In this document: positions 2,481-52,538 of the stretch, one piece after another
Numbering within the stretch: the first letter of the stretch is position 1
How the letters are laid out: each line of letters opens with the position of its first letter
From: Flavobacteriales bacterium
GTDB taxonomy: Bacteria; Bacteroidota; Bacteroidia; Flavobacteriales; UBA7312
Direction of reading: 5' to 3'
Assembly (NCBI GenBank): GCA_016779995.1
Contig: JADHMO010000001.1
Coordinates: forward strand, 74,638-138,637
Length of the DNA: 64,000 nucleotides
Made by a program: the position numbers and the translations under genes
The notes under the pieces: model-generated
Told to the model about the DNA's origin: nothing
Databases searched by the model: none
What the model saw: only the letters and a program-made list of their open reading frames with translations

Positions 2481-3417
2481 TTTTGTCTTGTTTTGATTTG
2501 TATGCTTTAATAATTTTTTTCACTAATTCATGGCGAATAACATCTTTGTCGTCTAGTTTGACAACACTGATACCTTTCACGCCTTTTAACACCTTCAAAG
2601 CCTCTAACAGACCAGAAGGTTGTTTAGATGGTAAGTCTATCTGTGTTTCATCTCCTGTAATAACAAACTTAGCCGATTTACCCATTCTTGTAAGAAACAT
2701 TTTCATTTGTTGACGAGTAGAATTTTGAGCTTCGTCTAATATTACGAATGCATTATCTAAAGTTCTACCTCTCATAAAAGCTAATGGTGCTATTTCTATG
2801 ATTCTATGTTCTATATATTCATTTAACTTCTCTGCCGGAATCATGTCCCTTAGAGCGTCATAAAGTGGTTGTAAGTATGGATCTAACTTTTCTTTTAAAT
2901 CACCTGGCAAAAACCCTAAATTCTCTCCTGCTTCTACGGCAGGTCTTGATAAAATTATTCGTCTGACCTCTTTATTTTTTAAAGCTCTAACAGCAATAGC
3001 AACGGCGGTATATGTTTTTCCTGTTCCTGCTGGTCCTACAGCAAAAAGCATATCGTTTTTTTGAGATTCTTTAACTATCTTACGCTGGTTAACGGTTTTA
3101 GCTTTAATTATTTTTCCGTGAGGACCATGAACCAAAGTATCGTTATCTCCTTCTAACACAGCACTATCCTCTAATATTATACGTTCTATATTGCTATGCG
3201 TAAGACGTTGATATTTACTAAAATGCTCAAGCATCAAAGTAAATTTTTGAACAAATGCTTGTATGGATTCATCGTCACCTATAAGTTTTAGTGTATTGCC
3301 TCGAGCTACACATTTTATCTTTGGAAAGAAATCTAGAATGAAAGACAAAGTCTTGTTATTTGAACCATAAATATCTAGAGGGTTAATACCTCCTAAATCT
3401 ATAATTTTTTCACCCAT
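2473..3417 (-). CDS. phoH: PhoH-family ATPase
   Basis: Walker [10 protein letters not shown], then [32 protein letters not shown] and ILDEAQN. Overlaps purC by 8 nt. Confidence 0.93.
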
Positions 3418-3526
3418 GTATTATGCTCAATTATATTAATGACGAATCAGCAAAAATTATACTTACTTTTGATGGCACAAAATAACAACTTTTTAAGACA
3501 TTTAATTGGATTAATTGCTCAATATT

Positions 3527-4312
3527 ATGCCAATAATTACACTAACCACAGACTTAGGCACAGTTGACCATTACGTGAGCGCAGTAAAAGCGACTATTTT
3601 AAGGCAGTTAGACAATGCTAATATTGTAGATATTAGCCACGACATACCCCCTTTTAATATCATACATGCTGCATTTGTTCTTAAAAATGTTTATCAAGAA
3701 TTTCCTCCTGGAAGCATACATATTATTGGTGTAAATGCTGAAACTAACGAGGATAATAGTCACCTTGCGGTTTATGCTAACGGACATTATTTTGTAGGTA
3801 CTGACAACGGAATTTTCTCTTTACTTTTAGATTTAAAACCTGATAAAATTGTTGAAATAACTACCACTAGGGATTCTGATAATGAAAACTTTCCTGTGAA
3901 AGATGTTTTTGCCAAGGCAGCTTGTCATATTGCTAGAGGAGGTACATTAGAGATTATAGGAACTGAAATCAAACAATTTTCTAAAGAATTTGCTAAACTA
4001 GAGGCTTTACACGATAAAAATTCTATTAGAGGCTCAATCATTCATATCGATCATTATGGCAATGCTATAACCAACATTAGCCAACGTCTTTTTAAAGATA
4101 TTGCTAAAGGTAGAGCCTATACCATAAATTTGGGTAGTAAAGAACACTACTCATTAAACACCATCAAAAGAAAGTACAATGAAGTACAAGCTGGAGACGC
4201 TGTTGCACTTTTTATATCAACAGATTTCCTGACCATATCCATTAATAATGGCTCTGCATCTTCTTTAATGGGACTACATATTAACGATACCGTTAGAATT
4301 GAATTTAAATGA
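3527..4312 (+). CDS. SAM hydrolase / SAM-dependent halogenase family (DUF62) protein
   Basis: N-terminal MPIITLTTDLG...DHYV and HIDHYGNAITNI motifs of the S-adenosyl-L-methionine hydroxide adenosyltransferase family. ATG 3527 chosen over the track's TTG at 3515. Confidence 0.8.
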   Translation: MPIITLTTDLGTVDHYVSAVKATILRQLDNANIVDISHDIPPFNIIHAAFVLKNVYQEFPPGSIHIIGVNAETNEDNSHLAVYANGHYFVGTDNGIFSLLLDLKPDKIVEITTTRDSDNENFPVKDVFAKAACHIARGGTLEIIGTEIKQFSKEFAKLEALHDKNSIRGSIIHIDHYGNAITNISQRLFKDIAKGRAYTINLGSKEHYSLNTIKRKYNEVQAGDAVALFISTDFLTISINNGSASSLMGLHINDTVRIEFK

Positions 4313-14796: not shown

Positions 14797-14830
14797 ATAA
14801 AAAAATAAAAAAAGGAGCCGAAGCTCCTTT
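14797..14830 (-). terminator. strong intrinsic terminator ending the riboswitch-controlled gene
   Basis: The minus strand reads AAAGGAGC-UUCG-GCUCCUUU followed by UUUUUAUUUUUU. It sits 20 nt after the stop at 14851. Confidence 0.8.
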
Positions 14831-14850: not shown

Positions 14851-16017
14851 TTATTGTCTGAAAATCTTTTTGCCTGAACGGATATAAACACCCTTTGGTT
14901 GATTTTCAATTTGATTGATTTTTCTTCCAAACAAATCGAAAAAGACATCGTCTTGAGTTTGATTGATAGAGTAATCTTCTATTGAAGTTGTACTTCTCAC
15001 ATCAAAAACAATGGTTCCTGGTGATACACCACAATCAAATTCAGAAACTAAATTGTTGTCTGCATCATAAATGTGTACTTTTCCATACGTAGAATAGTCC
15101 GTTTCGGAAGCGTATAGATAATTATTGACTTCATCGTAAGCTAACTCATAAAAGTTTTGATTGATTCCCAAAGGATTACCCGAAGATAATAGCGTTGCTG
15201 GATCCCATTCTAACAAAACAGAATCCATTGATATTTGAAAGTTGATTTTATCCCCTCGTAAACAAGATGTACCACAACCTGTACTCACATCAGAAACATT
15301 AATAGTAGTTGAAGAATGTGTACTTAAATCTACTTTTGAAAAGGATGCACCAGACCAGTTTTTATTATTAACAGTATAAATATAGTTGTCTGTAATCATC
15401 ATATTATCGGTATTAGTAGCATCCGAGCCCAAATCTATTTCCTCCAAATAACTCAAGGTATTTAAATCCAATACGCCAATTAGTGATTTTTCATTGCCCC
15501 ATTCGAAACCATTATTAATTGCCACATAAAGTTTATTATCGGTATGTACCATATTCTGAGTAGTCCATTTAGGGCCTTCAGTAGTATCTAATTCTGAAAT
15601 AAAAGTTAAATCAGATTTTGAATAAATTTGAAAGTATGAATCAAAACTTACTCCATACTCTCCTCTTGAAACAAATAAATTGTCATTGACAATTAGTATA
15701 TTTCTTACTCCAGTAACTGATTGACTAGCTAACAACTCATATGTATTCAAATCATACTTGAGAAGTTGTGTATCAGCAGCTATATAGAAATAATCACCAT
15801 TAATAATCATATCTGAAGCAAAACGAGCTCCCTCTATTGTGTCTACTATTGAGTAATTGTTAGTGACAGGATCATAGCTTCCAATAGTAACAGGAGTTTC
15901 TATTTCTCCAGTTGTGTAATTGTAACGACCTTCATTAAGTATCAATACTTGATTAACTACATTTTGTGCTACAACACCTTGATAAATAAGGTATAACACT
16001 AATACTACTTTTTTCAT
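14851..16017 (-). CDS. secreted YncE/DUF5074-like beta-propeller protein with short T9SS-like C-terminal tail; cobalamin-riboswitch controlled
   Basis: Sec signal peptide MKKVVLVLYLIYQGVVAQ with no lipobox Cys. LILNEGRYN... start and repeated ~45-aa blade-like segments. C-terminus ...VFFDLFGRKINQIENQPKGVYIRSGKKIFRQ resembles the last strands of a type-A T9SS CTD. An RF00174-like leader lies directly upstream. Confidence 0.7.
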   Translation of the reverse strand: MKKVVLVLYLIYQGVVAQNVVNQVLILNEGRYNYTTGEIETPVTIGSYDPVTNNYSIVDTIEGARFASDMIINGDYFYIAADTQLLKYDLNTYELLASQSVTGVRNILIVNDNLFVSRGEYGVSFDSYFQIYSKSDLTFISELDTTEGPKWTTQNMVHTDNKLYVAINNGFEWGNEKSLIGVLDLNTLSYLEEIDLGSDATNTDNMMITDNYIYTVNNKNWSGASFSKVDLSTHSSTTINVSDVSTGCGTSCLRGDKINFQISMDSVLLEWDPATLLSSGNPLGINQNFYELAYDEVNNYLYASETDYSTYGKVHIYDADNNLVSEFDCGVSPGTIVFDVRSTTSIEDYSINQTQDDVFFDLFGRKINQIENQPKGVYIRSGKKIFRQ

Positions 16018-16044
16018 TCTATTTTTTTAAGTTTATAGACAAAT

Positions 16045-16232
16045 ACTAAGACCACCTTATCCCGAGGTTTTCCGTTCGTTTGTTATGGCAGGTCTTCTGA
16101 CTTGCTCTCCTAAGTGGCCTTCCCATTCTTACAGAACAGTGGACTGTGGATCTTAGGTTCTTTATGAGCTTACAGCTGCGGGAACAGTTGAGGACTTACA
16201 CCTCCTTCCCTATTAATTCTTTTCAGAAACCG
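16045..16232 (-). promoter_or_regulatory. cobalamin (B12) riboswitch
   Basis: The minus strand reads AAUAGGGAAGGAGGUGUAAGUCCUCAACUGUUCCCGCAGCUGUAAGC...AGUCCACUG...GGGAAGGCCA...AAGUCAGAAGACCUGCC. All conserved aptamer blocks are present, including the B12 box (plus-strand 16087-16102). It lies between a consensus promoter and the ATG at 16017. Confidence 0.9.
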
Positions 16233-16240
16233 TAACGCCA

Positions 16241-16273
16241 CAAAGTTAGCCCTATTTCTTAATAAAAATCAAA
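16241..16273 (-). promoter_or_regulatory. promoter of the riboswitch transcript (TTTG-N21-TAACTTTG)
   Basis: The -7 box is the reverse complement of 16241-16248 and the -33 TTTG is the reverse complement of 16270-16273. This places +1 a few nt upstream of the aptamer. Confidence 0.55.
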
Positions 16274-16282
16274 AAAATGCCC

Positions 16283-16290
16283 TATATTTG
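16283..16290 (+). promoter_or_regulatory. -7 box (TATATTTG) for T9SS type-B gene copy 1
   Basis: Exact TAnnTTTG, 31 nt upstream of ATG 16322. Conserved in the duplicated copy at 18755-18762. Confidence 0.5.
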
Positions 16291-16321
16291 TTATTTACTT
16301 ACTTAAAGCCGATAAATTGTG

Positions 16322-18433
16322 ATGAAACGCTTACTTATTTACTCTTTTACTATTCTTTCTTTTTTATCATTTTCACAACAAATTGCTGTATATGACTTTG
16401 AAAATTTGTCTGAGGGTGATATTAATGGTCAAGATGGATGGCAATATAGCTCATCGTTGTCATCATTAGATAATGGATACAATTGCCCAGTAATTGGGAA
16501 TCCGTTAGTCACTGAGGTTAGTGTGCTTGGTAACTCAGGAAACTATCTAGCTGGTAAGGCTATACGTACTGGAAGTGGTTATGATAATCAAATTGTATTA
16601 ATAAGCAGAAAAAATAACGCTGATTGGTCATTCCCCTCTTTACAAAATAAACAATTTTTGATGTTTGAATTCGTAATGGGTTTGGGCTGTATGAATAGAT
16701 CTGTAAAATTAGGATTCGATGAAAACATGGATGGAAACTATGGTGAAAATTGTGGATTAGAAGATATAAATGAAGCGAGTTTTGGGTTAAGTTGGTCTGT
16801 ATGTGATACACCAACTTATTTAAAGCTTTTCGACGCCTCATCAAATGTAATTGCAACAGATAACCAAGTTAACTGGGGGTTTGTTAGGTATTTAATGGTT
16901 ATAGATTTTTATGCTAATGATTATCAAGGTGAGGTTTGTGTTTTAACTAAACATCTGACCGGACAGACCAACTGGTCTCCAGTAGTATCAATGCAAAATT
17001 TAAATATGGGATTTGATTTTTTATCTGCTGAAAAAAATAATCCAATTAACCTTGACGGAATTATTCTTCAAGAAGGAGGTGATGCTGCATATTTTGACGA
17101 TATAAAGTTTACTGTTTTTGATTTATTTCCTAATGATACCACTATTTGTTTAGGCAAGTCTTTAACTTTAGGAAAACCAATAAATGGAGTTTCGTATGTA
17201 TGGAGCACAGCAGAAACTACACCAACTATAGAAATAACTTCAGAAGGTAGCTATTCTGTTGATCTTTACATTAATAATAATAAAATTTTGTCCGATAGTA
17301 CTTATGTCAGATTTAGGGAATTAGATAATGTAATCAATGACACTTCATTTTGTCAGAATGAATCTATAACATTATTTGCAGAACAAAACTTGGACTTTTA
17401 TTTATGGAACGATAGTAGTACGTATAATCAATTACAAATCGATTCACCTGGAGAATACTCATTATATTTCGAGAAAAATGGTTGCATAGGATTCGATACA
17501 ATAGAAGTAATCGAAATTTTAGCTCCAAATATAGACTTAGGTCAAGATATTATAGCTTGTCCTGATGAAGAAGTCATTTTGCAAGCCAACACGAATGGTA
17601 CAGCTTTCAAATGGTCTGATGGTAGTACGCGGCCTACTTTAGAAGTTAAACAATCTGGAGATTATCATTTGACCACCTCTATTGAGCAATGCACAGCTTC
17701 AGATACTATTAACGTAACTTTTATACCTTCAATAAATTTAGGAAATGATACCACCATTTGTGAGGGTGATTTCTTTACCATTGATTTAGATAAAGATTAT
17801 GAAGATTATTCATGGCACGATGGAGATAAAAGCAGTAGTAAAGATATTCATTATGATGGAGAGTATTTTGTAACCGTAAAAAAACTGAATTGTGTTATAC
17901 AATCAGACACTCTCAAAGTAAATAGAGTATTACTTCCTCGCATTTTAGAAACTACTGACGATACTCTCATGTGTGAAAACTTCCCCTTATTACTTAAAGT
18001 AAAAGCTGAATTATACGATAATTTATTATGGTTCGACGGTCATACTGATACTGTAACATTGGTAAGAACTTCAGGAGTGTATTGGGTAAGCACTAGTAAT
18101 GAATGTGGAGTTATTACGGACAGTATTAAAGTAACAACAGAAAATTGTTTATGTAAAGAGTTTTTGCCTGATGTCTTTACACCAAATGGAGATAGATTAA
18201 ATGACTTTTTTGGATATGAATCTAATTGTATTCCTTCAAAATATTATAGTCTTCAGATTTTTAATAGATGGGGAGAACAAATATTTGAGAGTAATGATTA
18301 TAAACAAAAATGGGACGGAACATTCAAAGGCTCAATATGCCCTACTGATATTTATTCGTTTTTGTTAATTGTTCAATACAAAAATGATATGGGGAAAAGA
18401 ACCATCAAAAGAAAATTTAGTTTAATACAGTAA
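16322..18433 (+). CDS. T9SS type-B (gliding-motility-associated C-terminal domain) cargo protein, paralog 1
   Basis: Signal peptide, a ~250-aa N-terminal jelly-roll-like domain, five ~65-aa Cys-containing Ig-like repeats (NDTxxC...YxW..G.t...i.v...G.Y...), and C-terminal FTPNGDRLNDFF...IFNRWGEQIFES...WDGTFKG (type-B CTD). Confidence 0.85.
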   Translation: MKRLLIYSFTILSFLSFSQQIAVYDFENLSEGDINGQDGWQYSSSLSSLDNGYNCPVIGNPLVTEVSVLGNSGNYLAGKAIRTGSGYDNQIVLISRKNNADWSFPSLQNKQFLMFEFVMGLGCMNRSVKLGFDENMDGNYGENCGLEDINEASFGLSWSVCDTPTYLKLFDASSNVIATDNQVNWGFVRYLMVIDFYANDYQGEVCVLTKHLTGQTNWSPVVSMQNLNMGFDFLSAEKNNPINLDGIILQEGGDAAYFDDIKFTVFDLFPNDTTICLGKSLTLGKPINGVSYVWSTAETTPTIEITSEGSYSVDLYINNNKILSDSTYVRFRELDNVINDTSFCQNESITLFAEQNLDFYLWNDSSTYNQLQIDSPGEYSLYFEKNGCIGFDTIEVIEILAPNIDLGQDIIACPDEEVILQANTNGTAFKWSDGSTRPTLEVKQSGDYHLTTSIEQCTASDTINVTFIPSINLGNDTTICEGDFFTIDLDKDYEDYSWHDGDKSSSKDIHYDGEYFVTVKKLNCVIQSDTLKVNRVLLPRILETTDDTLMCENFPLLLKVKAELYDNLLWFDGHTDTVTLVRTSGVYWVSTSNECGVITDSIKVTTENCLCKEFLPDVFTPNGDRLNDFFGYESNCIPSKYYSLQIFNRWGEQIFESNDYKQKWDGTFKGSICPTDIYSFLLIVQYKNDMGKRTIKRKFSLIQ
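17540..18051 (+). repeat. near-identical tract shared with 20011-20522 (putative gene-conversion tract)
   Basis: Perfectly identical runs at 17675-17811 (137 nt), 17864-17970 (107 nt) and 17972-18051 (80 nt). Flanking coding sequence is far more diverged. Confidence 0.85.
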
Positions 18434-18443
18434 ATTACAGGAT

Positions 18444-18581
18444 ATGAAATCATTAATTCTATTTACTCTAGTTATTTTTATAAATATTACTCTTTATGCT
18501 CAGTGCGACTGGTCGGTTGTTTTTTATGACGATTTTGAGCACAACAACGTTGATCCTGGCTATGTTCAAGGTACTGCTTAA
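18444..18581 (+). pseudogene. truncated 5' fragment (45 codons) of a Big_2/T9SS gene: duplication scar
   Basis: It encodes MKSLILFTLVIFINITLYAQCDWSVVFYDDFEHNNVDPGYVQGTA*. The signal peptide plus ...(V/I)(F/I)Y(D/T)D(F/I)E...(V/L)DP aligns with the N-terminus of the 20909 gene (...SQIIYTDIEPDASTTLDP). The ORF stops where homology to the riboswitch copy begins. Confidence 0.55.
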
Positions 18582-18592
18582 GTAAGTGGCTT

Positions 18593-18690
18593 TCCCATTC
18601 TTGTAGAATAATGGACTAAATCTTAAGTTGTTTTTGAGCTTACAGCTGCAGGAACATTTGAAGACTTACACCTCCTTCCCTATTAATTCT
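18593..18690 (-). other. fossil 5' half of a cobalamin riboswitch (truncated, lacks B12 box)
   Basis: The minus strand reads AAUAGGGAAGGAGGUGUAAGUCUUCAAAUGUUCCUGCAGCUGUAAGC...AGUCCAUUA...GGGAAAGCCACUUA and then ends. Invariant positions are mutated and the B12 box and P1 3' strand are absent. Confidence 0.8.
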
Positions 18691-18754
18691 TATATGAACC
18701 CGTAACGATACGAAGTTAGCCCTAATTCTTAAAAAAAATCTCAAAAAATTACCC

Positions 18755-18762
18755 TATATTTG
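18755..18762 (+). promoter_or_regulatory. -7 box (TATATTTG) for T9SS type-B gene copy 2
   Basis: Exact TAnnTTTG. It overlaps the track's TTG start (18760), so ATG 18790 is the likely start. Confidence 0.5.
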
Positions 18763-18789
18763 TTTTCTTACTTAAAGTCAATTAATGTG

Positions 18790-20904
18790 ATGAAATGTTT
18801 ACTTGTTTACTCCTTCACCTTTCTTACTTTTTTATCATTTTCACAACAAGTTGCTATTTACGACTTTGAAAATTTGTCTAATGGAGATATTACTAATCAA
18901 GATGGGTGGCATTACAGTACTTCTATGTCATCTATGAACAATGGATATAATTGTCCAGTTGTTGGAACACCATTGATACCTCAAATTACTGATATGCCGA
19001 CAGATGGCGATTATATAGCTAGTAAAACTATAATGTCTAATAGTGGCTGGGGCAATCAACATGTTGTGATAAGTAGAGTTAATAATAACGATTGGTCATT
19101 TCCATCATTTCAAAACAAACAATTTCTAATTCTTGAATTTGAAATGTCAGGTGGATGTTGGGGTAAGGATTTTAGGTTAGCATTTGATCAAAATAATGAC
19201 GGTAATTTTGGTCAAAACTGTGGACAATCAGACCCAAATGAAGGAAGTTTTGGCATACAATGGTTTGGCTGTAATCAAAACGCAAATCTTAAACTTTTTG
19301 ATGCTAATTCAGAAATGGTAGCGGTGGAAATGGTACTTGAACCTAGCTGGGTAAAATATGTTATGGTTATTGATTTTTATGCAAACAACTATCAAGGTAG
19401 TGCTAGTGTATTTAGAAAGAATTTAACGAACCAAGCTGATTGGGTTACAATAAACACAATGCAAAATATAAATCTAAATTTTGACACAGCCTCAACCGGT
19501 AACAACAACCCATATAACCTAAATGGAATCAAGATAGATCAAGAAGCTGGTGTACAGGCTTATTTTGACAACATCAAATTCACAGTTATGGATTTCAATC
19601 ATAAAGATACCACAGTATGTGAAGGGGAAACCATAACTATAGGCAATCCCATAAGCGGCAGTCAGTATTTATGGAATACTGGAGATACATCATCTACAAT
19701 AGATGTGAATACTGAAGGTATATATTTTGTAGACTTATATAAGGATGGTTTAAAAGTACTTAGAGATAGTATAACTGTTAATCTAATAGAATTACCAAGA
19801 ACTTTTAACGATACTAGCTACTGTGAAGACGAAAATTTTTTACTATTTGCAGGTAGTAATTTGGACTATCATTTTTGGAATGATAGTATATCAGATAATG
19901 AAATAAACATTAATAGTGCTGGAGAATATACCATTCATTATTCAAAAGATGGATGTGTACGTACTGACACCTTTCAAGTAGTAGAAATTGTACCTCCATA
20001 TATGGATTTAGGTCAAGATTTTACAGCTTGCCCTGATGAAGAAGTCATTTTGCAAGCCAACACGAATGGTACAGCTTTCAAATGGTCTGATGGTAGCACA
20101 CAATCTTCTTTAGAAATAAAACAATCTGGAGAATACCATTTGACTACCTCTATTGAGCAATGCACAGCTTCAGATACTATTAACGTAACTTTTATACCTT
20201 CAATAAATTTAGGAAATGATACCACCATTTGTGAGGGTGATTTCTTTACCATTGATTTAGATAAAGATTATGAAGATTATTCTTGGCATGACGGAGATAA
20301 GAGCACTTCAAAAGACATTCATTATGATGGAGAATATTTTGTAACCGTAAAAAAACTGAATTGTGTTATACAATCAGACACTCTCAAAGTAAATAGAGTA
20401 TTACTTCCTCGCATTTTAGAAACTACTGACGATACTCTCATATGTGAAAACTTCCCCTTATTACTTAAAGTAAAAGCTGAATTATACGATAATTTATTAT
20501 GGTTCGACGGTCATACTGATACAGCGACGATAGTTAGAGAATCAGGCGTTTATTGGGTAAGCGCCTCTAATACATGTGGAGTTGAAACAGATAGCATTAA
20601 AGTAAATGCTGAAAATTGTCTATGTGAAGAGTTTTTACCTAATGTATTTACCCCTAATGAAGATAGACTAAACGACTTTTTTGGCTATCAATCGAATTGT
20701 ATCCCTTCAAAATATTACAGCCTACAAATTTTTAATCGCTGGGGAGAACAGATTTTCGAAAGTCGTGATTATAACGAAAAATGGGATGGCACCTACAGAG
20801 GCAAAATTTGTCCTACTGGTGTCTATTCATATTTATTGGTAGTTCAATATAAAAATGATATGGGAAAAAGAACCATCAAAAGAAAATTTAGTTTAAATCA
20901 ATAA
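18790..20904 (+). CDS. T9SS type-B cargo protein, paralog 2
   Basis: Same architecture as 16322-18433. The N-terminal domain is diverged, the central repeats are near-identical, and the type-B CTD reads FTPNEDRLNDFF...IFNRWGEQIFES...WDGTYRG. Confidence 0.85.
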   Translation: MKCLLVYSFTFLTFLSFSQQVAIYDFENLSNGDITNQDGWHYSTSMSSMNNGYNCPVVGTPLIPQITDMPTDGDYIASKTIMSNSGWGNQHVVISRVNNNDWSFPSFQNKQFLILEFEMSGGCWGKDFRLAFDQNNDGNFGQNCGQSDPNEGSFGIQWFGCNQNANLKLFDANSEMVAVEMVLEPSWVKYVMVIDFYANNYQGSASVFRKNLTNQADWVTINTMQNINLNFDTASTGNNNPYNLNGIKIDQEAGVQAYFDNIKFTVMDFNHKDTTVCEGETITIGNPISGSQYLWNTGDTSSTIDVNTEGIYFVDLYKDGLKVLRDSITVNLIELPRTFNDTSYCEDENFLLFAGSNLDYHFWNDSISDNEININSAGEYTIHYSKDGCVRTDTFQVVEIVPPYMDLGQDFTACPDEEVILQANTNGTAFKWSDGSTQSSLEIKQSGEYHLTTSIEQCTASDTINVTFIPSINLGNDTTICEGDFFTIDLDKDYEDYSWHDGDKSTSKDIHYDGEYFVTVKKLNCVIQSDTLKVNRVLLPRILETTDDTLICENFPLLLKVKAELYDNLLWFDGHTDTATIVRESGVYWVSASNTCGVETDSIKVNAENCLCEEFLPNVFTPNEDRLNDFFGYQSNCIPSKYYSLQIFNRWGEQIFESRDYNEKWDGTYRGKICPTGVYSYLLVVQYKNDMGKRTIKRKFSLNQ
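20011..20522 (+). repeat. near-identical tract shared with 17540-18051
   Basis: See the 17540-18051 entry; offset is 2471 nt. Confidence 0.85.
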
Positions 20905-20908
20905 ACTT

Positions 20909-23068
20909 ATGATTATGAAAAAACAAAATGTAATACTGACAAGTATAATTTTATTATTCGCCAAGAGTCTATTTTCTCAAATAATATACACAGATATTGA
21001 GCCAGATGCAAGTACTACTCTAGACCCAATAATTATGTCAGTCAATGGGGTTGTTGAAATAGATTTTAATAACGATGGGAATGCAGAATTTGATTTTAGA
21101 TGGGATGATTATTCATTTATTGGATACGGTTATTTTTCTCACATTACCAACCCTAATAATAATAGTCATACAATGTGGTTAAGTGGAAGCAACAACAGTT
21201 ATAATGCGGGGTATTTGCAAGTCGTTAATGAAAATGAACTTATTGGACCTAATCTTCAAAGTGGTCTGTGGGGAATGACTATACCTGACCCAATAATAGC
21301 AGACTCTGAAAACAATACATTTCAAGAACTTGGGGATAAATACATCGGAGTTCAAATCAACTTAAATGGTATTCTTCATTATGGTTGGATAAGAGTATCA
21401 TTTGATGAGAATAAGACTTTAACTATCAAAGATTATGCCTATCAAAGTTTACCAAATACCGCAATTCTAGCCGGTGCTTCTCAAGATATTTTACCAGAGT
21501 CTCTAGAAATTGAAGGAGAAAATGGAGTTACAACTATATTAAATAGTCAAAGTTTACAAATGATTAGCAATGTACTTCCAAGCAATGCTAGTAATCAAAA
21601 CGTAATTTGGAGTGTAAGTAACGTTAGTGGTTCTGCTACTATAAATAATACTGGATTACTTACGGCCACTTCTTCTGGAACAGTACTTGTTGAAGGAACT
21701 ATTTTAGGTACTACAATTACTGATACAATCTCAATCATAATTAATCCCAATTTGATAACATCTTTGGTGATTTTTGGAGAAAATAATAACTCTACTGTTT
21801 TGATTGGGCAAACACTACAGATGTATTCCACAATTGTACCCGGTAATGCAGATAATACAAATTTGACCTGGACAGTAAGCGATCAGGGAGGTAGTGCTAC
21901 TATTGCCGACAATGGACTATTAACTGGTGTAACAGAAGGTCAAGTTTTGGTAACAGCCAGCACCAATGATGGTTCAAATTTAAGTGATACAAAATACATT
22001 ACAGTATTACCTGTCAATTTAGATTCCATTTCAATATATTCAGATGGCTTTGTCACAGAAATTGATTTCAATGAAAGCGTTCAAATGAGTGTCATATTTT
22101 ATCCAGAAAATGCCACCTACCAAGAAGTAAGTTGGGATATAGTTGAACTAGAAGCTAATGCAAGCATAAATCAAAACGGTATGGTTTATGGACAAAGTGG
22201 TTCTCAAGGAATTGTTCAAGTTGTTGCTACTTCTACTATTTCTAATTCAGTATCAGATACGTTTGACTTATTCATTAACTACATACCTATCACTACTATC
22301 ATTGTTCAGGGAGAAAACGGTTTAATGTCTGTAGATGAAGAAAATGACTTGCAGATGGAGGCTATTGTTAGCCCTTCTAATGCTACATCTTCTAATGTAA
22401 CATGGAGCGTTGAGAATTTAACTGGAGAAGCTACAATTGCATTCGATACAGGCATATTAACAGGTGTTAGTCAAGGAACAGTTAAAGTTATAGCAAATGC
22501 TGCTGATGGCAGTGGTACAATTGGAGATACTATCGTTACTATCAATGAATTGTATCGTTATATAACCTCAATAGAAGTACAAGGAGAAAATGGGGCTACA
22601 TCAATCAATTTGAATGGTTATTTACAAATGAATGCTACAATTTTACCTCAAAATGCTACTAATCCATTGATTGCTTGGACAGTAGTCAACAATACAGGCT
22701 CTGCCTTTATAAATGATGAGGGATTACTTTCACCTACTTCATTAGGTGATGTCATTGTAAAAGCTGTCGCACAAGATGGTTCAAATTTAATCGGACAAGA
22801 AACAATAAACATAACTCAAGCAGTTGGGTTAACTTTTGATAATAATGAAATCACAAAAATATTCCCCAACCCTACTAGTTCGAGTATTTATGTACAGTCT
22901 TCAAAAGATATAGAACATATCAGTTTGTTTTCAATCGATGGAAAATTGATTATGGAGGAAAAGCAGTCGAATTTATTAAATCTGAATAGACTAAGCAATG
23001 GTAGTTATTTAGTAAAAGTAAACTACTTAGACAAAACCTCAGACATTCAACTCATTATGAAACAATAG
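20909..23068 (+). CDS. T9SS type-A cargo protein with five Big_2 (bacterial Ig-like group 2) repeats and an uncharacterised N-terminal domain
   Basis: Five repeats of the pattern LQMxxxVxPxNAxNxxVxWxVxNxxGxATIxxxGLLTxxxxGxVxV. C-terminal IFPNPTSSSIYVQ...NGSYLVKV... type-A CTD. Starts 4 nt after the upstream gene. Confidence 0.85.
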   Translation: MIMKKQNVILTSIILLFAKSLFSQIIYTDIEPDASTTLDPIIMSVNGVVEIDFNNDGNAEFDFRWDDYSFIGYGYFSHITNPNNNSHTMWLSGSNNSYNAGYLQVVNENELIGPNLQSGLWGMTIPDPIIADSENNTFQELGDKYIGVQINLNGILHYGWIRVSFDENKTLTIKDYAYQSLPNTAILAGASQDILPESLEIEGENGVTTILNSQSLQMISNVLPSNASNQNVIWSVSNVSGSATINNTGLLTATSSGTVLVEGTILGTTITDTISIIINPNLITSLVIFGENNNSTVLIGQTLQMYSTIVPGNADNTNLTWTVSDQGGSATIADNGLLTGVTEGQVLVTASTNDGSNLSDTKYITVLPVNLDSISIYSDGFVTEIDFNESVQMSVIFYPENATYQEVSWDIVELEANASINQNGMVYGQSGSQGIVQVVATSTISNSVSDTFDLFINYIPITTIIVQGENGLMSVDEENDLQMEAIVSPSNATSSNVTWSVENLTGEATIAFDTGILTGVSQGTVKVIANAADGSGTIGDTIVTINELYRYITSIEVQGENGATSINLNGYLQMNATILPQNATNPLIAWTVVNNTGSAFINDEGLLSPTSLGDVIVKAVAQDGSNLIGQETINITQAVGLTFDNNEITKIFPNPTSSSIYVQSSKDIEHISLFSIDGKLIMEEKQSNLLNLNRLSNGSYLVKVNYLDKTSDIQLIMKQ

Positions 23069-43057: not shown

Positions 43058-44665
43058 CTAATCCACTATATTCAGTCGCTCTACAACTACCTTATCCCCT
43101 ATGGTAGCCTCAAGGATATAAATTCCTGATGGTAAAGCTGGAATTTCTATTGGAATCAAAGCGTAGGACCAATCGTTTTTCCCTTGTAAAATCTCTTGAC
43201 CTCGTACATCTACTAAACGGTAGGAGATATTTGTATGATTGGCAGTATAAAGGTATGCCTTAGCATTTGAAGACACTGGATTAGGATAAATGTCTAAAGT
43301 CACTTCATCAATAGCTTCAATATCTAGTAACAAGGCGTTAGCTAAGGAATAATTGGGAATACCAAAGCCCATTTGATTGTCAGGTGTTTGGTACAAGTGG
43401 GCACTCTGTGTTATAGCCTCTATAATTTGCATATTACTTTTTTGGTAGTGGGCTTGCCACAAACAAGCCGTCATACCCGCAATAATGGGCGAGGAAAAAG
43501 AAGTCCCATTACTAGTAGCAATAGCATTACTAGAAGTAATTACAGTAGTATTACCCCCTTGTGCTGAAACTGTAGGTTTGACTCTACCATCTGAGGAAGG
43601 ACCATAAGAAGAAAATGAGGAGGATAAACCATCGGCATTGACAGAACCTACACTCAAAATGCTATCGGCATCAGCTGGAGCACCAATATAATACCACGAA
43701 TTATTACCCGAATTACCCGCCGAATTACATACTATCATACCCTTACGACTTGCCATAGTAGCTGCTCTGCTTATGACGGTTGTCTTTCCGTCCATATCGG
43801 CGTAGCTATGATCTTGAGATGCAATATCAAAAGTGGTATATCCTAGAGAAGAATTGATAATATCCACCCCTGCACTATCGGCAAACTCGGCAGCTACTGC
43901 CCAATTGTATTCCTCAATAAGTGTCTCCGAAGATGCATCTTCGGTACGCAACAGCCAATAACTAGCTTTTGGTGCTGTCCCTAAAAATTCATTTTCCAAA
44001 TATCCAGCAATAGTAGATAGTACTGACATGCCGTGATAGTTATCTTCATAAACCGAAGATTCGCCATCGACATAATCCCAAGTGCCTAATACCTGATTAT
44101 TGGCAAATAGATGGGTGAATGCATCTATCTCATCAGTTTTTCTAAAACCAGCGTCTAATACAGCAATGTGTATTCCTTGACCTTGATAGCCTTGTTCGTG
44201 CAGATTATCCCCTGACAACATTTCTATCTGATTTTTGGATTGTCCATAATCGTTTTCAAAAACGATATCATCAAATTTTGAGGCTTTTCTGACATCTGAT
44301 AAATCTATAAATAATTGCAAAGAATCTACTTCTTTAATAAAATCTAAAGTCAATAAAGTATCTACATTAGCACCAGAGTATGAGGCTGTTACACCGTTAA
44401 ACCACTTGCTTTTGTTGAGGATTGTAAATCCCAAATCTTGTAAGGTCAAAAGGTAGTCCGTAGGTATGGGCAAATCCGAATAGTGCAAAGGGATATTTTG
44501 TTTTGCTCTACGCTCAATAGCTCGAGGCGATAACAATTCTGAAGGGGTAAAATCACTGACCGTATAACTGCCTTTATCTTCAAAAGCAATCCACAATTTT
44601 AAAGATATACTATCTTGTGAAAAACTGAATAAAGGAAGAAATATAAGTAGCGTTAATAGTCTCAT
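43058..44665 (-). CDS. S8 (subtilisin-like) serine peptidase with T9SS type-A C-terminal domain
   Basis: Catalytic triad motifs AVLDAGF, HGMSVLS and GTSFSSPIIAG. C-terminal LDIYPNPVSS...GIYILEA... is a type-A CTD. Confidence 0.9.
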   Translation of the reverse strand: MRLLTLLIFLPLFSFSQDSISLKLWIAFEDKGSYTVSDFTPSELLSPRAIERRAKQNIPLHYSDLPIPTDYLLTLQDLGFTILNKSKWFNGVTASYSGANVDTLLTLDFIKEVDSLQLFIDLSDVRKASKFDDIVFENDYGQSKNQIEMLSGDNLHEQGYQGQGIHIAVLDAGFRKTDEIDAFTHLFANNQVLGTWDYVDGESSVYEDNYHGMSVLSTIAGYLENEFLGTAPKASYWLLRTEDASSETLIEEYNWAVAAEFADSAGVDIINSSLGYTTFDIASQDHSYADMDGKTTVISRAATMASRKGMIVCNSAGNSGNNSWYYIGAPADADSILSVGSVNADGLSSSFSSYGPSSDGRVKPTVSAQGGNTTVITSSNAIATSNGTSFSSPIIAGMTACLWQAHYQKSNMQIIEAITQSAHLYQTPDNQMGFGIPNYSLANALLLDIEAIDEVTLDIYPNPVSSNAKAYLYTANHTNISYRLVDVRGQEILQGKNDWSYALIPIEIPALPSGIYILEATIGDKVVVERLNIVD

Positions 44666-48101: not shown

Positions 48102-51100
48102 CTATCTAAAAAATCGTTTTTTGAAGTTATCAACATCCGTTTCTGAAGACAAATCGTATTGGTATTGAGCTTGTCCCTTAGAGGCTGGTAGCTTCTTTTG
48201 TTGGGATTTCACTTCCAAAATACCAATGTTGTAATCTTCTATTGAAGAACGACTGAGTAATACCTCATTAGAATAGGTAAAGAAATACCACTCGCCAATA
48301 TCTGTTTCTAAATAGACATTAAAGATGTCACCAGAATAATCTTTATTGAGCTCCAGTCGTCCTTTGTACAGCTTATTGATTTGGAAGTCATTAACGTTAC
48401 CCAAGCCTAACATCTTTTTAGACATAATGCTTGAATTTTCTTGATCCCACTCTAGATTAACATCGTAGAAATAAAGGGTTTTCTTTAGTTTAGATGGTAA
48501 CTTTTGAAACTGTCCATACATCTCGTATTCAAAAGATAAATCCTCATCCTTCAAGATTCTTTTAAAATTAGGAATATAAAAACTCTCTTTCATCTCTAAC
48601 TCATCTGCCATTGGGTCGTTAAACAAGTCTTGCCCCATAAATTCCATAGCGTTATTGCTCATGTAAAAATCTAAGGATAACATACACTTAGTTTTAAAGG
48701 TATTCTCTACAGCATTGTAGTTGAAATTACCAATAGTAGAAAGTTCTACTCGTCCTAAATCAAGTCCTAAATTAAACTCTCCCTCTCCTTTCATTATACA
48801 ACCCTCGTTGGTCATCGTAAATTTACTTGCCAAAGAATCAGTTTTATCTTGTACAATAAACATAGAAAGCCCTGTATTATAAGATAAATAACCATTAATA
48901 GGCATCATAACCAAATCCGTTTCTTGCTCTAGTACAGAAAGGAAAGCTGGATAGATTCTATCTTCTGACATGATAGGGCCTACATACAAGTTCTTGCCAT
49001 TTTCGTCAAGTACTTCACCACCTATCGGCAATTGTATGTCTTCTACCCCAACGTAATCGCTGAACTTAACCCAACCGTCTTTGACTAAGTAACATTCGTG
49101 TTGTACTTGAAAAGCACCGTCGTAATAAAACTCTTTCATAGAGCCTTCCATCTTAACAGACCCTTTGTAAGAGAATTGAGGGTTAAACTTAAACCCTCTT
49201 TCTGAGCTAATAGTTCCTATACCCACCGATTGATAAATGCTATCGACATACAAGGAATCAAAGCGAATCAATTGTTCTTCAACACCTCTACCCTTGTAGT
49301 TTACCGAAGCACGACCCGCATAACTTTTACCACCATGAATCGTCACATCAGCATCAAATAATTCGTGGTAGCGTTTATCTCTATTAACTAAAATAGAAGC
49401 GCCTTTAAAACTTCTCATTCTTGCTCCTGTCTCCACCGTAACAGAACCATCAGCAGGATAAATAGCTGCATCGGCAACTAGTATCTCATCCACTTCTTCA
49501 GCATCTATAATGTAATTCTTTAAACTATATGAGGCTTTTCTAGAAACAAAAGACAAGGAATCTTGCTCGGGGTGAGTAGAAACAAACCTAGAGCCACTTC
49601 CGCCCTCAGACACACCCAATTCTATCAAACTTCTATCCATGAACCATTTTAGCTCATCGATAAAACAGATGTATTGGTTTTCAGGAAATGCCACAAATGA
49701 ATTGTTACCGTTAGATTGGAATTTACCTGTTCTTTCTAATAAATTAATCTCCGTACGCAAGTTTACAGACTCAAAGGCAATGGCTTTGAAATCATCAGAG
49801 CGGTGCAAGACAAAATCGGCTGTATCGGCATTAAATTCATTGTGATTGAAGTAGTATAAATTAGAACTTAATTCGGAATCTTCTAGATAAACATTACCTG
49901 CTCCCGTAAGTCCACTAGGGCGAAGATAAAAACGACCATCAAGGGTTGCTTTAGCAGAATACAATACCAAATCTTCGGTCTTTTTTTCTACCATTAGAAC
50001 GTCATCATAAGGTCGCCAATGCTCATATATAGTTTTACCACTAGCCTGAGGAAATTCAGCAATATTGGCTGTTCTTTCGAGGTCAAATGTGTTAGCATGG
50101 GTATTCATAGAATCTGGGAAGAATATATAATCGTCAGACTGTGTAGTCGAAGATAAATAGTCAAACCCTCCTTTACCTCTTAATCCAGATTTGTCTAATG
50201 ATAATCTATTGTTGGCATGAAATTGACCTTTATCGCCATACAAAGGATAGCCCGTTTCTGGAATATCAATCTTGAACCCTAAAGCATTATCTTCTTGCAC
50301 TCTTAATTCTTCTCTAAAACTTGGGAAAATGTTTGCCGAATTCAGCTCACCAGGAAAACTAAGCGAAGAACGGTTGTATGAATCTAAAGAATCTATTTCG
50401 AAAGGGTCTATATCGAAGTAAAAACGCTCTCTATCATATACTCCAGAAAATATTTCTTCTTGGTCGTAATATACCTTAGAACGGTCATAACTTCTGATGA
50501 TTGGGTATTGGGGATAATCTTCTTTCCATATTCCCGATTTATTGATGGTTGTATCGACCAACAATTCGCCATTGGCAATAGTAATTTCATTCTCTAAAGG
50601 TTCTAATACCAACTCCCCTTTTTCATTGTATTTCTCCTGATTGTTAGGAATCCAAACCTCTGTTGAAGCGTCTTTAAAATAAAGTCTAAAATCTTCGTAG
50701 TTAAAGGTTATATCTTCTGAATTTATTCTAAAACGTCCTCCTGCTCCTGCTATTAATCGTCCACCCATAGTGAAATTACGTCCTTCTTTAACAACAATTT
50801 CTTGCTTAGTAGGTAAAGCTATGACATCTCTTACTTCACTCAACTGAACCCGCTTAACGTTAAAAACTTTTAAGTCCATAGTGTTTAAGTCCAGAATAGC
50901 ATTCGCATTGTCTTGTGGTGCACTAGATTTAAAACGAATAACATCGTGGTCTTCCTTTTCTGATTTGGCCATAATATAACGAAGAACGTTATCTTTTACT
51001 CCTACTGTCCCCAATCCAGAATTGTAGGTGATAAAACCTTGCTTAGCCAAATTCATCAAAAAACGAATGTCCTGATCATCGGAATAGCCCGAAAGCCTAA

Positions 51101-52538
51101 CAAAATCATCAATCAAGAATATATTATTGATACCATACTGCTTGTTAAAATTGTTAATCCTAACTAAAGGATGCTGAGCATCTATTCCTAACAATGCATC
51201 AAAATGTTTTTCAGTATAATACCTATTGGACTCAAAAAAGGCTGGCTGACTAGTATTTTCTGGTAAGGTTCCAAAAATGATTTCATCGTCATCGATGTTC
51301 CAACCTAACTTCTGAAAACGCATATCTAAATCGTGATACGAATTGATATAAGGAGCAGAAGATATACCATCTTCATCAGAAATTAAATCCAAACGTCTAT
51401 CTTCTTGGTCATATATAAAATTTAAACCAGGGTGGGTAATAGAGTCATTAGCTAAAATGATTTTTACAGATGCATTAGAGGCTAAAACCCGCTTTCCAGT
51501 AATTGCAATTCTTTCCGAAGAAATACGAACAAATTGCTGACCTTTACGATAGAATATCAAACTTGCTAATTGACCATCTCCTCCCTTGGATACAAAACGG
51601 TTGCCGTACAAAGAATACCCTCCTATAAAATCTACATCTTCAATTAAATCAGAAAGAGTAATTTTCTTATCGTAAGAATCGAATTTAGGATAAGCTACCT
51701 TGCTATCATTCTTGTTCCTTTCAACCAGTTTATTCTCAAGACTTCCTAGTATGGGCTTGTCGTCAAAAACCATTAAATTATAAAAACGCACGGAGTCTGC
51801 TGAAAAGCTAGGTTGCTTTAAAGCAATAGAATACTTTGAAAGTTCGGCATATACTTCGGCAAAACTAAAACCTGCCTTACGCCAATCTATTAAACCTTCA
51901 TTTCCTCGCCATAAACCTTCAATAGGATAAAATGTACCACTAGTTTGGGCTATTTTCATAGTGTCTTGTCTAGCAATACACATCATATCTATGGGCTGAT
52001 TGAACTTTATCACTGGCACACTATCTTCTATAGCAAATTGATAGTTTAAGTTAGAAGTGTACCAACTCAAAGAACGGTTTCTAAAAAGTGTTTTTAGAGT
52101 AAATAAATCGTCGGAAAGGGTGTAAAATTTCAGTAATCTAGAAGTTGGAGAAGTTTCAATCAATAAACTAACTATAGCTGACCAATTATTAAACTGAGTG
52201 TCAAAGGATTCGGCATCTGTAAATGATACTATGGCTTTTAACAAAGACTCAAAATGAGTTGGTCTTTTTCTGTCTTTCAACATTTTGTTGGATAAATCAA
52301 TGATAGAAGATTTTTTATCCGAAGAAAAAGTATTGCCTTCCCACATCTTAGAAAAATCTTTCATCATTTTCTTAGTTTCTTCAGAGGCAGAACCCGTTAG
52401 CATAAAGGTATTGATTTCCTCTAAAAAGACCTTATTGTCATCAGTAAACGCCCTTAACCTCTTGTTTGATTGTGCATAGACAGAGGATGCTAAAATGAAA
52501 AAAGATAATAGAAAAGTTAGTTTTTTAATAGCTTTCAT
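48102..52538 (-). CDS. very large (1478 aa) secreted protein of unknown function
   Basis: Uninterrupted ORF with signal peptide MKAIKKLTFLLSFFILASSVYAQ. I recognise no domain or repeat, and it has no T9SS CTD. The ATG at 52538 overlaps the prmA stop (ATGA). Confidence 0.8.
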   Translation of the reverse strand: MKAIKKLTFLLSFFILASSVYAQSNKRLRAFTDDNKVFLEEINTFMLTGSASEETKKMMKDFSKMWEGNTFSSDKKSSIIDLSNKMLKDRKRPTHFESLLKAIVSFTDAESFDTQFNNWSAIVSLLIETSPTSRLLKFYTLSDDLFTLKTLFRNRSLSWYTSNLNYQFAIEDSVPVIKFNQPIDMMCIARQDTMKIAQTSGTFYPIEGLWRGNEGLIDWRKAGFSFAEVYAELSKYSIALKQPSFSADSVRFYNLMVFDDKPILGSLENKLVERNKNDSKVAYPKFDSYDKKITLSDLIEDVDFIGGYSLYGNRFVSKGGDGQLASLIFYRKGQQFVRISSERIAITGKRVLASNASVKIILANDSITHPGLNFIYDQEDRRLDLISDEDGISSAPYINSYHDLDMRFQKLGWNIDDDEIIFGTLPENTSQPAFFESNRYYTEKHFDALLGIDAQHPLVRINNFNKQYGINNIFLIDDFVRLSGYSDDQDIRFLMNLAKQGFITYNSGLGTVGVKDNVLRYIMAKSEKEDHDVIRFKSSAPQDNANAILDLNTMDLKVFNVKRVQLSEVRDVIALPTKQEIVVKEGRNFTMGGRLIAGAGGRFRINSEDITFNYEDFRLYFKDASTEVWIPNNQEKYNEKGELVLEPLENEITIANGELLVDTTINKSGIWKEDYPQYPIIRSYDRSKVYYDQEEIFSGVYDRERFYFDIDPFEIDSLDSYNRSSLSFPGELNSANIFPSFREELRVQEDNALGFKIDIPETGYPLYGDKGQFHANNRLSLDKSGLRGKGGFDYLSSTTQSDDYIFFPDSMNTHANTFDLERTANIAEFPQASGKTIYEHWRPYDDVLMVEKKTEDLVLYSAKATLDGRFYLRPSGLTGAGNVYLEDSELSSNLYYFNHNEFNADTADFVLHRSDDFKAIAFESVNLRTEINLLERTGKFQSNGNNSFVAFPENQYICFIDELKWFMDRSLIELGVSEGGSGSRFVSTHPEQDSLSFVSRKASYSLKNYIIDAEEVDEILVADAAIYPADGSVTVETGARMRSFKGASILVNRDKRYHELFDADVTIHGGKSYAGRASVNYKGRGVEEQLIRFDSLYVDSIYQSVGIGTISSERGFKFNPQFSYKGSVKMEGSMKEFYYDGAFQVQHECYLVKDGWVKFSDYVGVEDIQLPIGGEVLDENGKNLYVGPIMSEDRIYPAFLSVLEQETDLVMMPINGYLSYNTGLSMFIVQDKTDSLASKFTMTNEGCIMKGEGEFNLGLDLGRVELSTIGNFNYNAVENTFKTKCMLSLDFYMSNNAMEFMGQDLFNDPMADELEMKESFYIPNFKRILKDEDLSFEYEMYGQFQKLPSKLKKTLYFYDVNLEWDQENSSIMSKKMLGLGNVNDFQINKLYKGRLELNKDYSGDIFNVYLETDIGEWYFFTYSNEVLLSRSSIEDYNIGILEVKSQQKKLPASKGQAQYQYDLSSETDVDNFKKRFFR

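Follow-up and report, generated by a model that had tools for sequence, protein, structure and literature searches.

Vitamin B12 is a scarce and traded micronutrient in the ocean, and most Bacteroidota are auxotrophs for it. To our knowledge, experimental work on the B12-binding protein BtuG comes entirely from gut Bacteroides, where BtuG is a lipoprotein lid on the transporter BtuB. BtuG1, BtuG2 and BtuG3 of Bacteroides thetaiotaomicron (PDB 3DSM, 8BMX, 8OKV, 8P97, 8PTD) are surface lipoproteins assigned to Pfam family DUF5074, and of the 112 btuG homologues identified in gut strains, 106 are located in btuB-containing operons, occupying 106 of the 109 such operons (PMC6143338). Further surface proteins, BtuH (DUF4465) and BtuJ, are encoded beside btuG in Bacteroides and co-transcribed behind the riboswitch. 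Here we analyze a locus at positions 14851–23068 of a 64,000-nucleotide stretch of contig JADHMO010000001.1 (assembly GCA_016779995.1), hereafter the window, which comes from a marine Flavobacteriales metagenome-assembled genome (MAG). On the minus strand of this locus a cobalamin riboswitch precedes the gene of a beta-propeller protein, and on the plus strand three genes, gene2, gene3 and gene4, encode cargo of the type IX secretion system (T9SS), which is recognized by its C-terminal domains (CTDs). The propeller matches NCBI 'ISP71_00440' with 100% identity, and its relatives derive from Tara and other seawater metagenomes. In the searchable literature, we found no paper describing BtuG with T9SS, or type IX secretion with a cobalamin riboswitch.

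The original prediction, made from the sequence alone, proposed that the four genes could form a B12-linked surface capture apparatus, or equally a coincidental accumulation of cargo. On the basis of the comparisons described below, it is probable that the locus consists of two independent units sharing an intergenic region by descent, namely a BtuG-like riboswitch unit and a dispensable, adhesin-like block of T9SS cargo.

A predicted BtuG relative behind a cobalamin riboswitch

The minus-strand unit comprises the following elements.

16241–16248, minus strand: –7 box TAACTTTG of the riboswitch promoter, read as reverse complement; predicted transcription start site (TSS) at about 16236
16070–16249, minus strand: cobalamin riboswitch aptamer RF00174 (cmscan 97.2 bits, E 5e-23, full model 1–189)
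14851–16017, minus strand: BtuG-like seven-bladed beta-propeller of 388 aa, identified by profile homology and AlphaFold2 (AF2) fold
14854–14988, minus strand: reduced type-A CTD, the 45-aa C-terminal tail of the propeller, with the last two motifs only (D.FGRK… / KGVYI.SGKKIFRQ)
14811–14830, minus strand: intrinsic terminator closing the riboswitch–btuG-like unit, AAAGGAGC-TTCG-GCTCCTTT followed by the T-run TTTTATTTTT

The aptamer, which scores far above the Rfam gathering score for RF00174 (31.5 bits), lies 52 nt 5' of the propeller ATG, and its sequence is conserved in relatives. A fold of 15995–16105 shows no terminator that could serve as the expression platform (z-score –0.35). Beyond the gene, the terminator begins 20 nt past the propeller stop and has a stem of 8 bp with 4 GC pairs and a TTCG loop; the presence of such a strong terminator directly 3' of the stop indicates that the riboswitch governs one gene.

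As a single query, the propeller matched no Pfam or NCBIfam family, and a PDB search returned only matches to BtuG C-termini at E-values of 0.3–3, so that its homology to BtuG is significant only when a profile is used. A search of 1.84 billion representatives yielded 457 propeller relatives (clusters at 50% identity, E ≤ 1e-3), and a family profile built from 84 of them matched the PDB chains of BtuG1, BtuG2 and BtuG3 over the whole propeller with E-values of 1e-16 to 6e-14 (BtuG2 3DSM, 8BMX, 8BMY, 8BN0, 8BAI and 8BAZ; BtuG3 8OKV, 8PUJ and 8P97). The identity of these BtuG entries is confirmed in PMC10404256. The AF2 model of the propeller, with about 28 strands, has a predicted local distance difference test (pLDDT) score of 90.3 overall and above 95 for residues 20–340. 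In a Foldseek search with this model, the best 14 PDB matches were all BtuG1, BtuG2 or BtuG3 (E 2e-17 to 3e-14), with template modelling (TM) scores, normalised by target length, of 0.73–0.82 and root-mean-square deviations (rmsd) of 2.5–3.7 Å; the next matches, to Lp49, BamB and Kelch, were weaker by a factor of 1e4 to 1e7 and had rmsd values above 5 Å.

The corrinoid contacts of BtuG2, taken from 10.1101/2024.02.16.580637 and PMC10404256, were mapped by aligning both the window protein and BtuG2 to the family hidden Markov model (HMM). Half of the B12 contact residues are retained in the window propeller, those that are the same or conservatively replaced being E55→E29, G56→G30, F58→Y32, W194→F171, Y316→Y290 and Y335→Y308. 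The position of G30 is invariant in all 84 family members and that of F171 is aromatic in 83. Polar exchanges are seen at three further contacts (Q93→S, N107→D, Q219→N).

Predicted export signals of the propeller

The N-terminus of the propeller, MKKVVLVLYLIYQGVVAQN, is a signal of the signal peptidase I (SPI) type (…VVAQ), with predicted cleavage between MKKVVLVLYLIYQGVVA and QN. The signal peptides at this locus close with a small residue before a Gln, the usual pattern of Bacteroidota SPI substrates (the 'Q-rule'). A lipobox Cys is absent from the propeller N-terminus, and a lipobox-like motif occurs in only 6 of the 84 family members.

At the other end, the 45-aa tail aligns with the Por_Secre_tail end of full-length homologues (…FDLFGRK… and …KGVYIRSGKKIFRQ) and remains well conserved in short-tail relatives with as little as 56% overall identity. 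In the window protein this tail matches no CTD model, TIGR04183 and PF18962 included, and can be recognized as a remnant only when full-CTD homologues are aligned with it; its pLDDT in the AF2 model is 50–60. A full Por_Secre_tail is present in 66 of the 84 family members and in 57 of 78 complete species-level homologues. The short-tail clade to which the window belongs includes about 20 species-level lineages, with proteins of 384–404 aa, and at the same locus the allele P0089 (466 aa; propeller body 82% identical) carries a Cys-rich linker and a full type-A CTD, which makes the T9SS route the family norm even in the clade of the window. It seems that the C-terminal module was swapped or reacquired within this clade. 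The long-tail alleles are located as follows.

L106 3353–4753 and L107 2963–4363: long-tail propeller allele P0089; also P0091

The earlier description of the propeller as a binder with a minimal type-A-like tail is thus strengthened by the BtuG-type homology and by the alignment of the tail with the CTD end, and falls short in that no CTD model recognizes the tail.

The riboswitch–propeller module across Bacteroidota

To place the unit in a wider context, one genome per GTDB species was scanned with a 12-sequence alignment as the query. The scan returned 80 loci with propellers 43–95% identical, in MAGs of Flavobacteriales, Crocinitomicaceae, Cryomorphaceae, Chitinophagales and Saprospiraceae. 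The riboswitch, detected with an iterated nhmmer model, lies directly upstream in 70 of the 80 loci, with 2 more loci lacking upstream DNA, and Rfam finds RF00174 at 85–102 bits in all seven loci checked. The neighbours of the propeller are heterogeneous, no neighbour family occurring in more than 15 of the 80 loci; a TonB-dependent transporter is found upstream in 7 and a DUF6580 protein upstream in 8. The riboswitch and propeller together are a self-contained module that is mobile in context. CTD-bearing genes are not enriched next to it (4 of 150 adjacent genes versus 42 of 897 elsewhere in the flanks; odds ratio 0.56, p 0.39), and all four adjacent CTD genes lie in the window's own clade, with none outside.

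In freshwater Crocinitomicaceae-type loci (L036, L037, L039–L041, L047), an 818-aa TonB-dependent transporter precedes the riboswitch–propeller unit, about 250–300 nt upstream of the riboswitch, and is in turn preceded by a PKD and Por_Secre_tail protein. In L048–L050 and L062, the unit is preceded by a DUF6580 membrane protein. The 818-aa transporter and the DUF6580 protein, both missing from the window, are candidate partners in B12 uptake. Two loci carry an unrelated S15-Flavobacteria leader (RF03161) beside pnp, a few hundred bases upstream of the unit (L065 9358–9416 and L052 8551–8608, both on the minus strand).

Several observations weigh against the assignment of the window propeller to a BtuG-like function. 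Its identity to BtuG2 is only about 16–17%, and it does not match Pfam PF16819 (DUF5074) even at E ≤ 10, a model on which BtuG2 scores 70.9 bits and which 5 of the 84 propeller relatives match. Two tryptophans of the BtuG2 pocket, W149 and W272, are glycines in the window protein, as is S131; BtuG3 also lacks W272, having a natural Ala at this position. Neither btuB nor any other TonB-dependent transporter gene is present within the 64-kb window. Finally, the short tail fits no CTD model, so that T9SS export of the window propeller is no more than putative. Together with the low AF2 confidence of the tail, most of these features also speak for the alternative that the propeller is a periplasmic or outer-membrane-associated YncE-like protein with another ligand and a tail unrelated to T9SS. 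We regard that alternative as improbable, since it leaves unexplained the cobalamin riboswitch in front of most family members, the restriction of good structural matches to B12-bound BtuG proteins and the conservation of the glutamate, glycine and aromatic pocket residues throughout the family, as well as the alignment of the tail with the terminal CTD motifs; the full type-A CTD is moreover the ancestral and majority state and is present in the same-locus allele. The profile and model comparisons instead indicate that the window propeller is a distant member of the BtuG family with a recognizable, remodelled pocket.

A mechanism compatible with these features can be outlined for the unit made up of promoter, cobalamin riboswitch, btuG-like gene and terminator, which would span 16249 to 14811 on the minus strand. 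At low intracellular cobamide the riboswitch would allow expression of the propeller, which would be carried through the inner membrane by Sec and processed by signal peptidase I and not, lacking the lipobox Cys, as a lipoprotein. It would then most likely be passed to the T9SS for display at the surface or release, capture corrinoids and hand them to a BtuB-type transporter encoded elsewhere. The weakest step of this scheme is the operation of the 45-aa tail as a T9SS signal; if the tail does work, few natural type-A CTDs would be shorter.

The plus-strand block and the divergent control region

On the opposite strand, the following features were identified.

16283–16290, plus strand: –7 box TATATTTG of the gene2 promoter, read from the sequence; predicted TSS at about 16295
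16319–18433, plus strand: gene2, T9SS type-B cargo of 704 aa (PF13585 5.5e-15, TIGR04131 8e-14)
18444–18581, plus strand: orphan 45-aa open reading frame (ORF) MKSLILFTLVIFINITLYAQCDWSVVFYDDFEHNNVDPGYVQGTA with a signal-peptide-like N-terminus
18583–18730, minus strand: truncated, decayed riboswitch copy (27.1 bits, below the gathering score of 31.5), with the 3' part of the aptamer missing
18755–18762, plus strand: second –7 box TATATTTG, the gene3 promoter copy, duplicated with gene3
18787–20904 (ORF from 18760), plus strand: gene3, tandem paralogue of gene2 (CHU_C at 2.6e-17)
20909–23068, plus strand: gene4, T9SS type-A cargo of 719 aa (five Big_2 domains PF02368 9e-33, PF18962 6e-9, TIGR04183 3.6e-8)

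The original prediction had already recognized here two type-B CTD genes and a five-Big_2 protein with a type-A CTD, and the curated models bear this out. Gene2 and gene3 score 51.5 and 52.4 bits on TIGR04131 (cut-off 35) and 55.7 and 63.1 bits on PF13585 (CHU_C; cut-off 27), and the CTD of gene4 scores 33.3 bits on TIGR04183 (cut-off 23) and 36.5 bits on PF18962 (Por_Secre_tail; cut-off 27). Gene2 opens with an orphan N-terminal domain (about 270 aa), continues with repeats of about 65 aa that contain Cys and closes with the CHU_C CTD, and gene4 begins with a domain of unknown type. A match of the NCBIfam model cbiD (CbiD, cobalt-precorrin-5B methyltransferase) to residues 431–534 of gene4 (E 0.0025, 17 bits against a cut-off of 200) was dismissed as a chance hit within the Big_2 repeats, although the cobalamin theme of the locus invites over-reading. 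No enzyme, transporter or regulator gene is present in 14851–23068, as had been claimed. Type-B cargo often, although not always, has an adjacent PorP/SprF-like partner gene; none adjoins gene2 or gene3, the ORFs of 16319–23068 being gene2, the 45-aa fragment, gene3 and gene4.

Both –7 boxes, TAACTTTG and TATATTTG, are located exactly where they had been predicted and fit the Bacteroidota sigma-A –7 consensus TAnnTTTG, which spans –12 to –5 (PMC9723704). The consensus is not enriched in the window (101 occurrences versus 96 expected); at such a chance frequency, the assignment of the boxes as putative promoters depends on position and conservation. The riboswitch-side box is kept in all aligned relatives, and the gene2 box is degenerate in those that lack the gene. 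The two units thus do share a compact divergent control region with back-to-back boxes, as proposed, while the 45–50 bp that had been given as the distance from the riboswitch promoter to the start of the plus-strand genes needs correction: the boxes are 34 bp apart and the predicted TSSs about 59 bp.

The block bears the marks of a local duplication. By blastn, 16111–18434 aligns with 18583–20905 at 75% DNA identity overall. The duplicated unit begins inside the riboswitch, which accounts for the aptamer piece and the second TATATTTG box in the spacer of about 350 nt that separates gene2 from gene3 and also contains the orphan ORF. The riboswitch copy is dead and points away from gene3; it illustrates how riboswitch pseudo-copies originate, and could mislead automated annotation. 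The orphan ORF, which has no homologue in the fetched loci or in the rest of the window, resembles the beginning of a further secreted protein, signal peptide included, that was severed at the duplication junction. The N-terminal halves of gene2 and gene3 are about 60% identical and identity outside a tract of about 500 bp is 55–85%, compared with 90–99% within that tract (17546–18045 versus approximately 20018–20516), which is indicative of recent gene conversion. The 99%-identical tract is also where short-read contigs of the same strain (L009, L010) stop. We considered whether the duplication could be a misassembly and rejected this, given that the N-terminal halves are only about 60% identical and that independent contigs break exactly at the repeat, as expected of a genuine one. 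Gene4 follows gene3 after 4 nt and is presumably co-transcribed with it; the earlier view of the last three genes as nearly contiguous therefore applies to this pair and not to gene2 and gene3.

The N-terminal domain of gene2 has only three homologue clusters among 5.8e9 sequences, all at the same chromosomal slot. It matches no Pfam family at E ≤ 10, a profile of seven orthologues finds no PDB entry at E ≤ 10, and its AF2 model, from a five-sequence alignment, is too poor for a fold search (pLDDT 41).

Repeated loss of the block among relatives

A collinear backbone was found in every relative examined, consisting of mutL, two rhomboid genes, a helix-turn-helix gene, pyrD, the HMG-CoA-lyase-like gene (HMGL), the slot that holds gene2–gene4 in the window, the riboswitch–propeller unit, the CPA-type antiporter gene and gcvT. 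The content of the slot is the sole variable part of this backbone and takes the following forms (loci by L number).

7055 bp, window: gene2, gene3, gene4
4383 bp, L018 (propeller 58%): intact gene2-like and gene4-like genes
2496 bp, L017 (propeller 68%): gene2-like gene alone
1371 bp, L023 (8616–9635): in-frame fusion of gene2 N-terminus and gene4 C-terminus
About 1100 bp, L012/13 (L012 10001–10780): gene2 N-terminus fused with gene4 C-terminus
849 bp, L096 (94%; 2827–3675): gene2 N-terminus fused with gene4 C-terminus
802, 715 and 703 bp, L003/4, L001/16 and L005/6, respectively: CTD remnants only
531 bp, L007/L014/L094 (95–96%; L007 9474–10000): scar
302–484 bp, L008 (92%), L097 (93%), L015, L098, L099, L105 (81–85%), L019, L021, L102–104: empty

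Full-length gene2 orthologues are found in L017 (51%) and L018 (35%), and in L018 a gene4 orthologue follows the gene2-like gene. Elsewhere, fusions or scars of 531–1371 bp occur in at least seven lineages and an empty slot in at least nine. Independent deletions have repeatedly joined the 5' end of a gene2-like gene to the CTD-encoding 3' end of a gene4-like gene, often in frame; among the products (P0272, 259 aa; P0273, 182 aa), some keep the signal peptide and CTD end and others contain stop codons, as do the L096 remnants. In the 531-bp scar, a CCATT microhomology marks the point where the initial 158 nt of gene2 (to codon ~53) meet the final 77 nt of gene4. The simplest account of why the block ends survive would be that one of them is constrained by the adjacent riboswitch promoter and the other by the convergent 3' end of HMGL. 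Altogether, approximately 16 of 19 related lineages have a truncated or scarred block or none at all, among them strains with a propeller 92–96% identical, and the riboswitch and propeller are retained in every related lineage compared. This distribution indicates that the gene2 and gene4 pair is ancestral to the clade, inherited with its neighbourhood, and the only part of it to have been deleted many times independently.

The finding of at least four deletion alleles within a population at least 92% identical, beside a full and duplicated allele, raises the question of whether the block might be an adaptively variable surface-protein island, shaped by pressure from phages or grazers or by adhesion specific to a niche, and not a product of neutral erosion in streamlined genomes. 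The recent conversion tract, at which the contigs of the identical strain break, and the adhesin-like make-up of the block, with Ig-like repeats and Big_2 domains, would fit such a view. The remnants with stop codons, however, resemble plain pseudogenes, and the deleted genes are not replaced by alternative cassettes, leaving empty slots, so we consider an adaptive island possible, if on the unlikely side. As regards B12, it is compatible with the two-unit explanation.

One unit or two

Under the two-unit explanation, gene2, gene3 and gene4 would constitute a plus-strand unit of adhesin-like T9SS cargo derived from the ancestral gene2 and gene4 pair. In this strain, gene2 would have been duplicated in tandem, its promoter and a portion of the riboswitch included, and gene conversion would later have partly homogenised the copies. 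The block would be transcribed from its own sigma-A promoters, and relatives would have lost it time and again through deletions with breakpoints within the genes. The count of four consecutive cargo genes given by the original prediction is right as to their presence; the genes fall into two units, two of them are tandem duplicates, and the gene2-like and gene4-like genes are an inherited pair.

Two facts speak against complete independence of the units. The adjacency of the gene2-like gene and the propeller, with a divergent promoter region of 69–81 nt, persists down to 58% propeller identity (L018), and the propeller locus is the only place where the N-terminal domain of gene2 is found. On account of these, a functional link between gene2 and the propeller retains a small probability. 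They are also the best arguments for the stronger proposal that all four genes form one surface corrinoid-capture apparatus, a propeller binder with Ig-repeat stalks, co-regulated through the shared control region: the divergent layout is kept in both L017 and L018, and the orphan domain, seen only opposite the riboswitch, is conserved among orthologues. Gut Bacteroides B12 loci, moreover, are reported to carry accessory surface binders such as BtuH/DUF4465 (PMC8941943, PMC13398666). This proposal nevertheless appears very improbable. The block is lost or decayed in most of the related lineages while the riboswitch and propeller always stay, no CTD neighbour accompanies the propeller outside the clade, and the domains of gene2–gene4 show no Pfam, NCBIfam or PDB-profile link to B12-binding families. 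Furthermore, the riboswitch acts in cis on the mRNA of the opposite strand and its unit ends in a terminator, which leaves no visible route from B12 to gene2–gene4.

The synteny comparison that the original prediction itself had suggested gives a mixed, largely negative answer, with block genes opposite the riboswitch in L017 and L018 and loss or decay in the bulk of the other lineages. Its second suggestion, a coincidental accumulation of cargo, comes closer than the apparatus, with the amendment that the neighbours are ancestral, not recent, and that gene3 arose by local duplication. About 6 of some 55 genes in the window have CTD-type tails, a density at which the adjacency of two cargo units is within chance. 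In more general terms, co-regulation does not follow from proximity to a riboswitch, even where promoters stand back to back, and the comparison of close strains exposes the large cargo genes as expendable passengers.

Other features of the window

The region is flanked on one side by genes for a CPA-type cation/proton antiporter and gcvT and on the other by the HMG-CoA-lyase-like gene and pyrD. Further cargo genes and one large ORF lie elsewhere in the window.

43058–44665, minus strand: S8 subtilase (peptidase), T9SS type-A cargo
48102–52565, minus strand: ORF of 1487 aa without a Pfam match at E ≤ 1e-4
63546–63998, minus strand: partial ORF, T9SS type-A cargo, running past the 3' end of the window

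Comparison with known systems

Gene2 and gene3 resemble T9SS type-B cargo such as SprB in being large and repeat-rich, with a type-B domain above curated cut-offs, and differ from it in having no PorP/SprF-like neighbour and an N-terminal domain without relatives outside the locus. The canonical domain of type-A cargo such as gingipain RgpB and Flavobacterium johnsoniae ChiA is present in gene4 and in most propeller homologues, in contrast to the window propeller, which keeps only about 35–45 aa covering the last two conserved motifs. Unlike BtuH and BtuJ, gene2–gene4 are encoded on the strand opposite to the riboswitch unit, have no detectable similarity to these proteins and are dispensable in relatives.

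The window propeller shares with BtuG the seven-bladed architecture, a homology detectable by profiles, the position behind a cobalamin riboswitch and part of the pocket residues. In contrast to BtuG, it has an SPI signal and no lipid anchor, ends in a type-A CTD remnant (a full CTD in most relatives), forms a single-gene unit without an adjacent btuB, falls below the DUF5074 threshold and lacks the W149 and W272 equivalents; its family also differs from the BtuG of gut Bacteroides in being found in aquatic MAGs of Flavobacteriales, Chitinophagales and Saprospiraceae. We consider it an even question whether the aquatic BtuG homologues as a whole (457 clusters; Flavobacteriales, Crocinitomicaceae, Chitinophagales, Saprospiraceae) are T9SS-exported, stand-alone, riboswitch-controlled 'corrinophores' that scavenge picomolar B12 without a neighbouring BtuB, the tail being cut to about 45 aa in the clade of the window. 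A BtuG relative that is routed through the T9SS and encoded apart from a transporter would point to a different manner of corrinoid capture in aquatic Bacteroidota, by surface display or release, from that of the lipoprotein BtuG of the gut.

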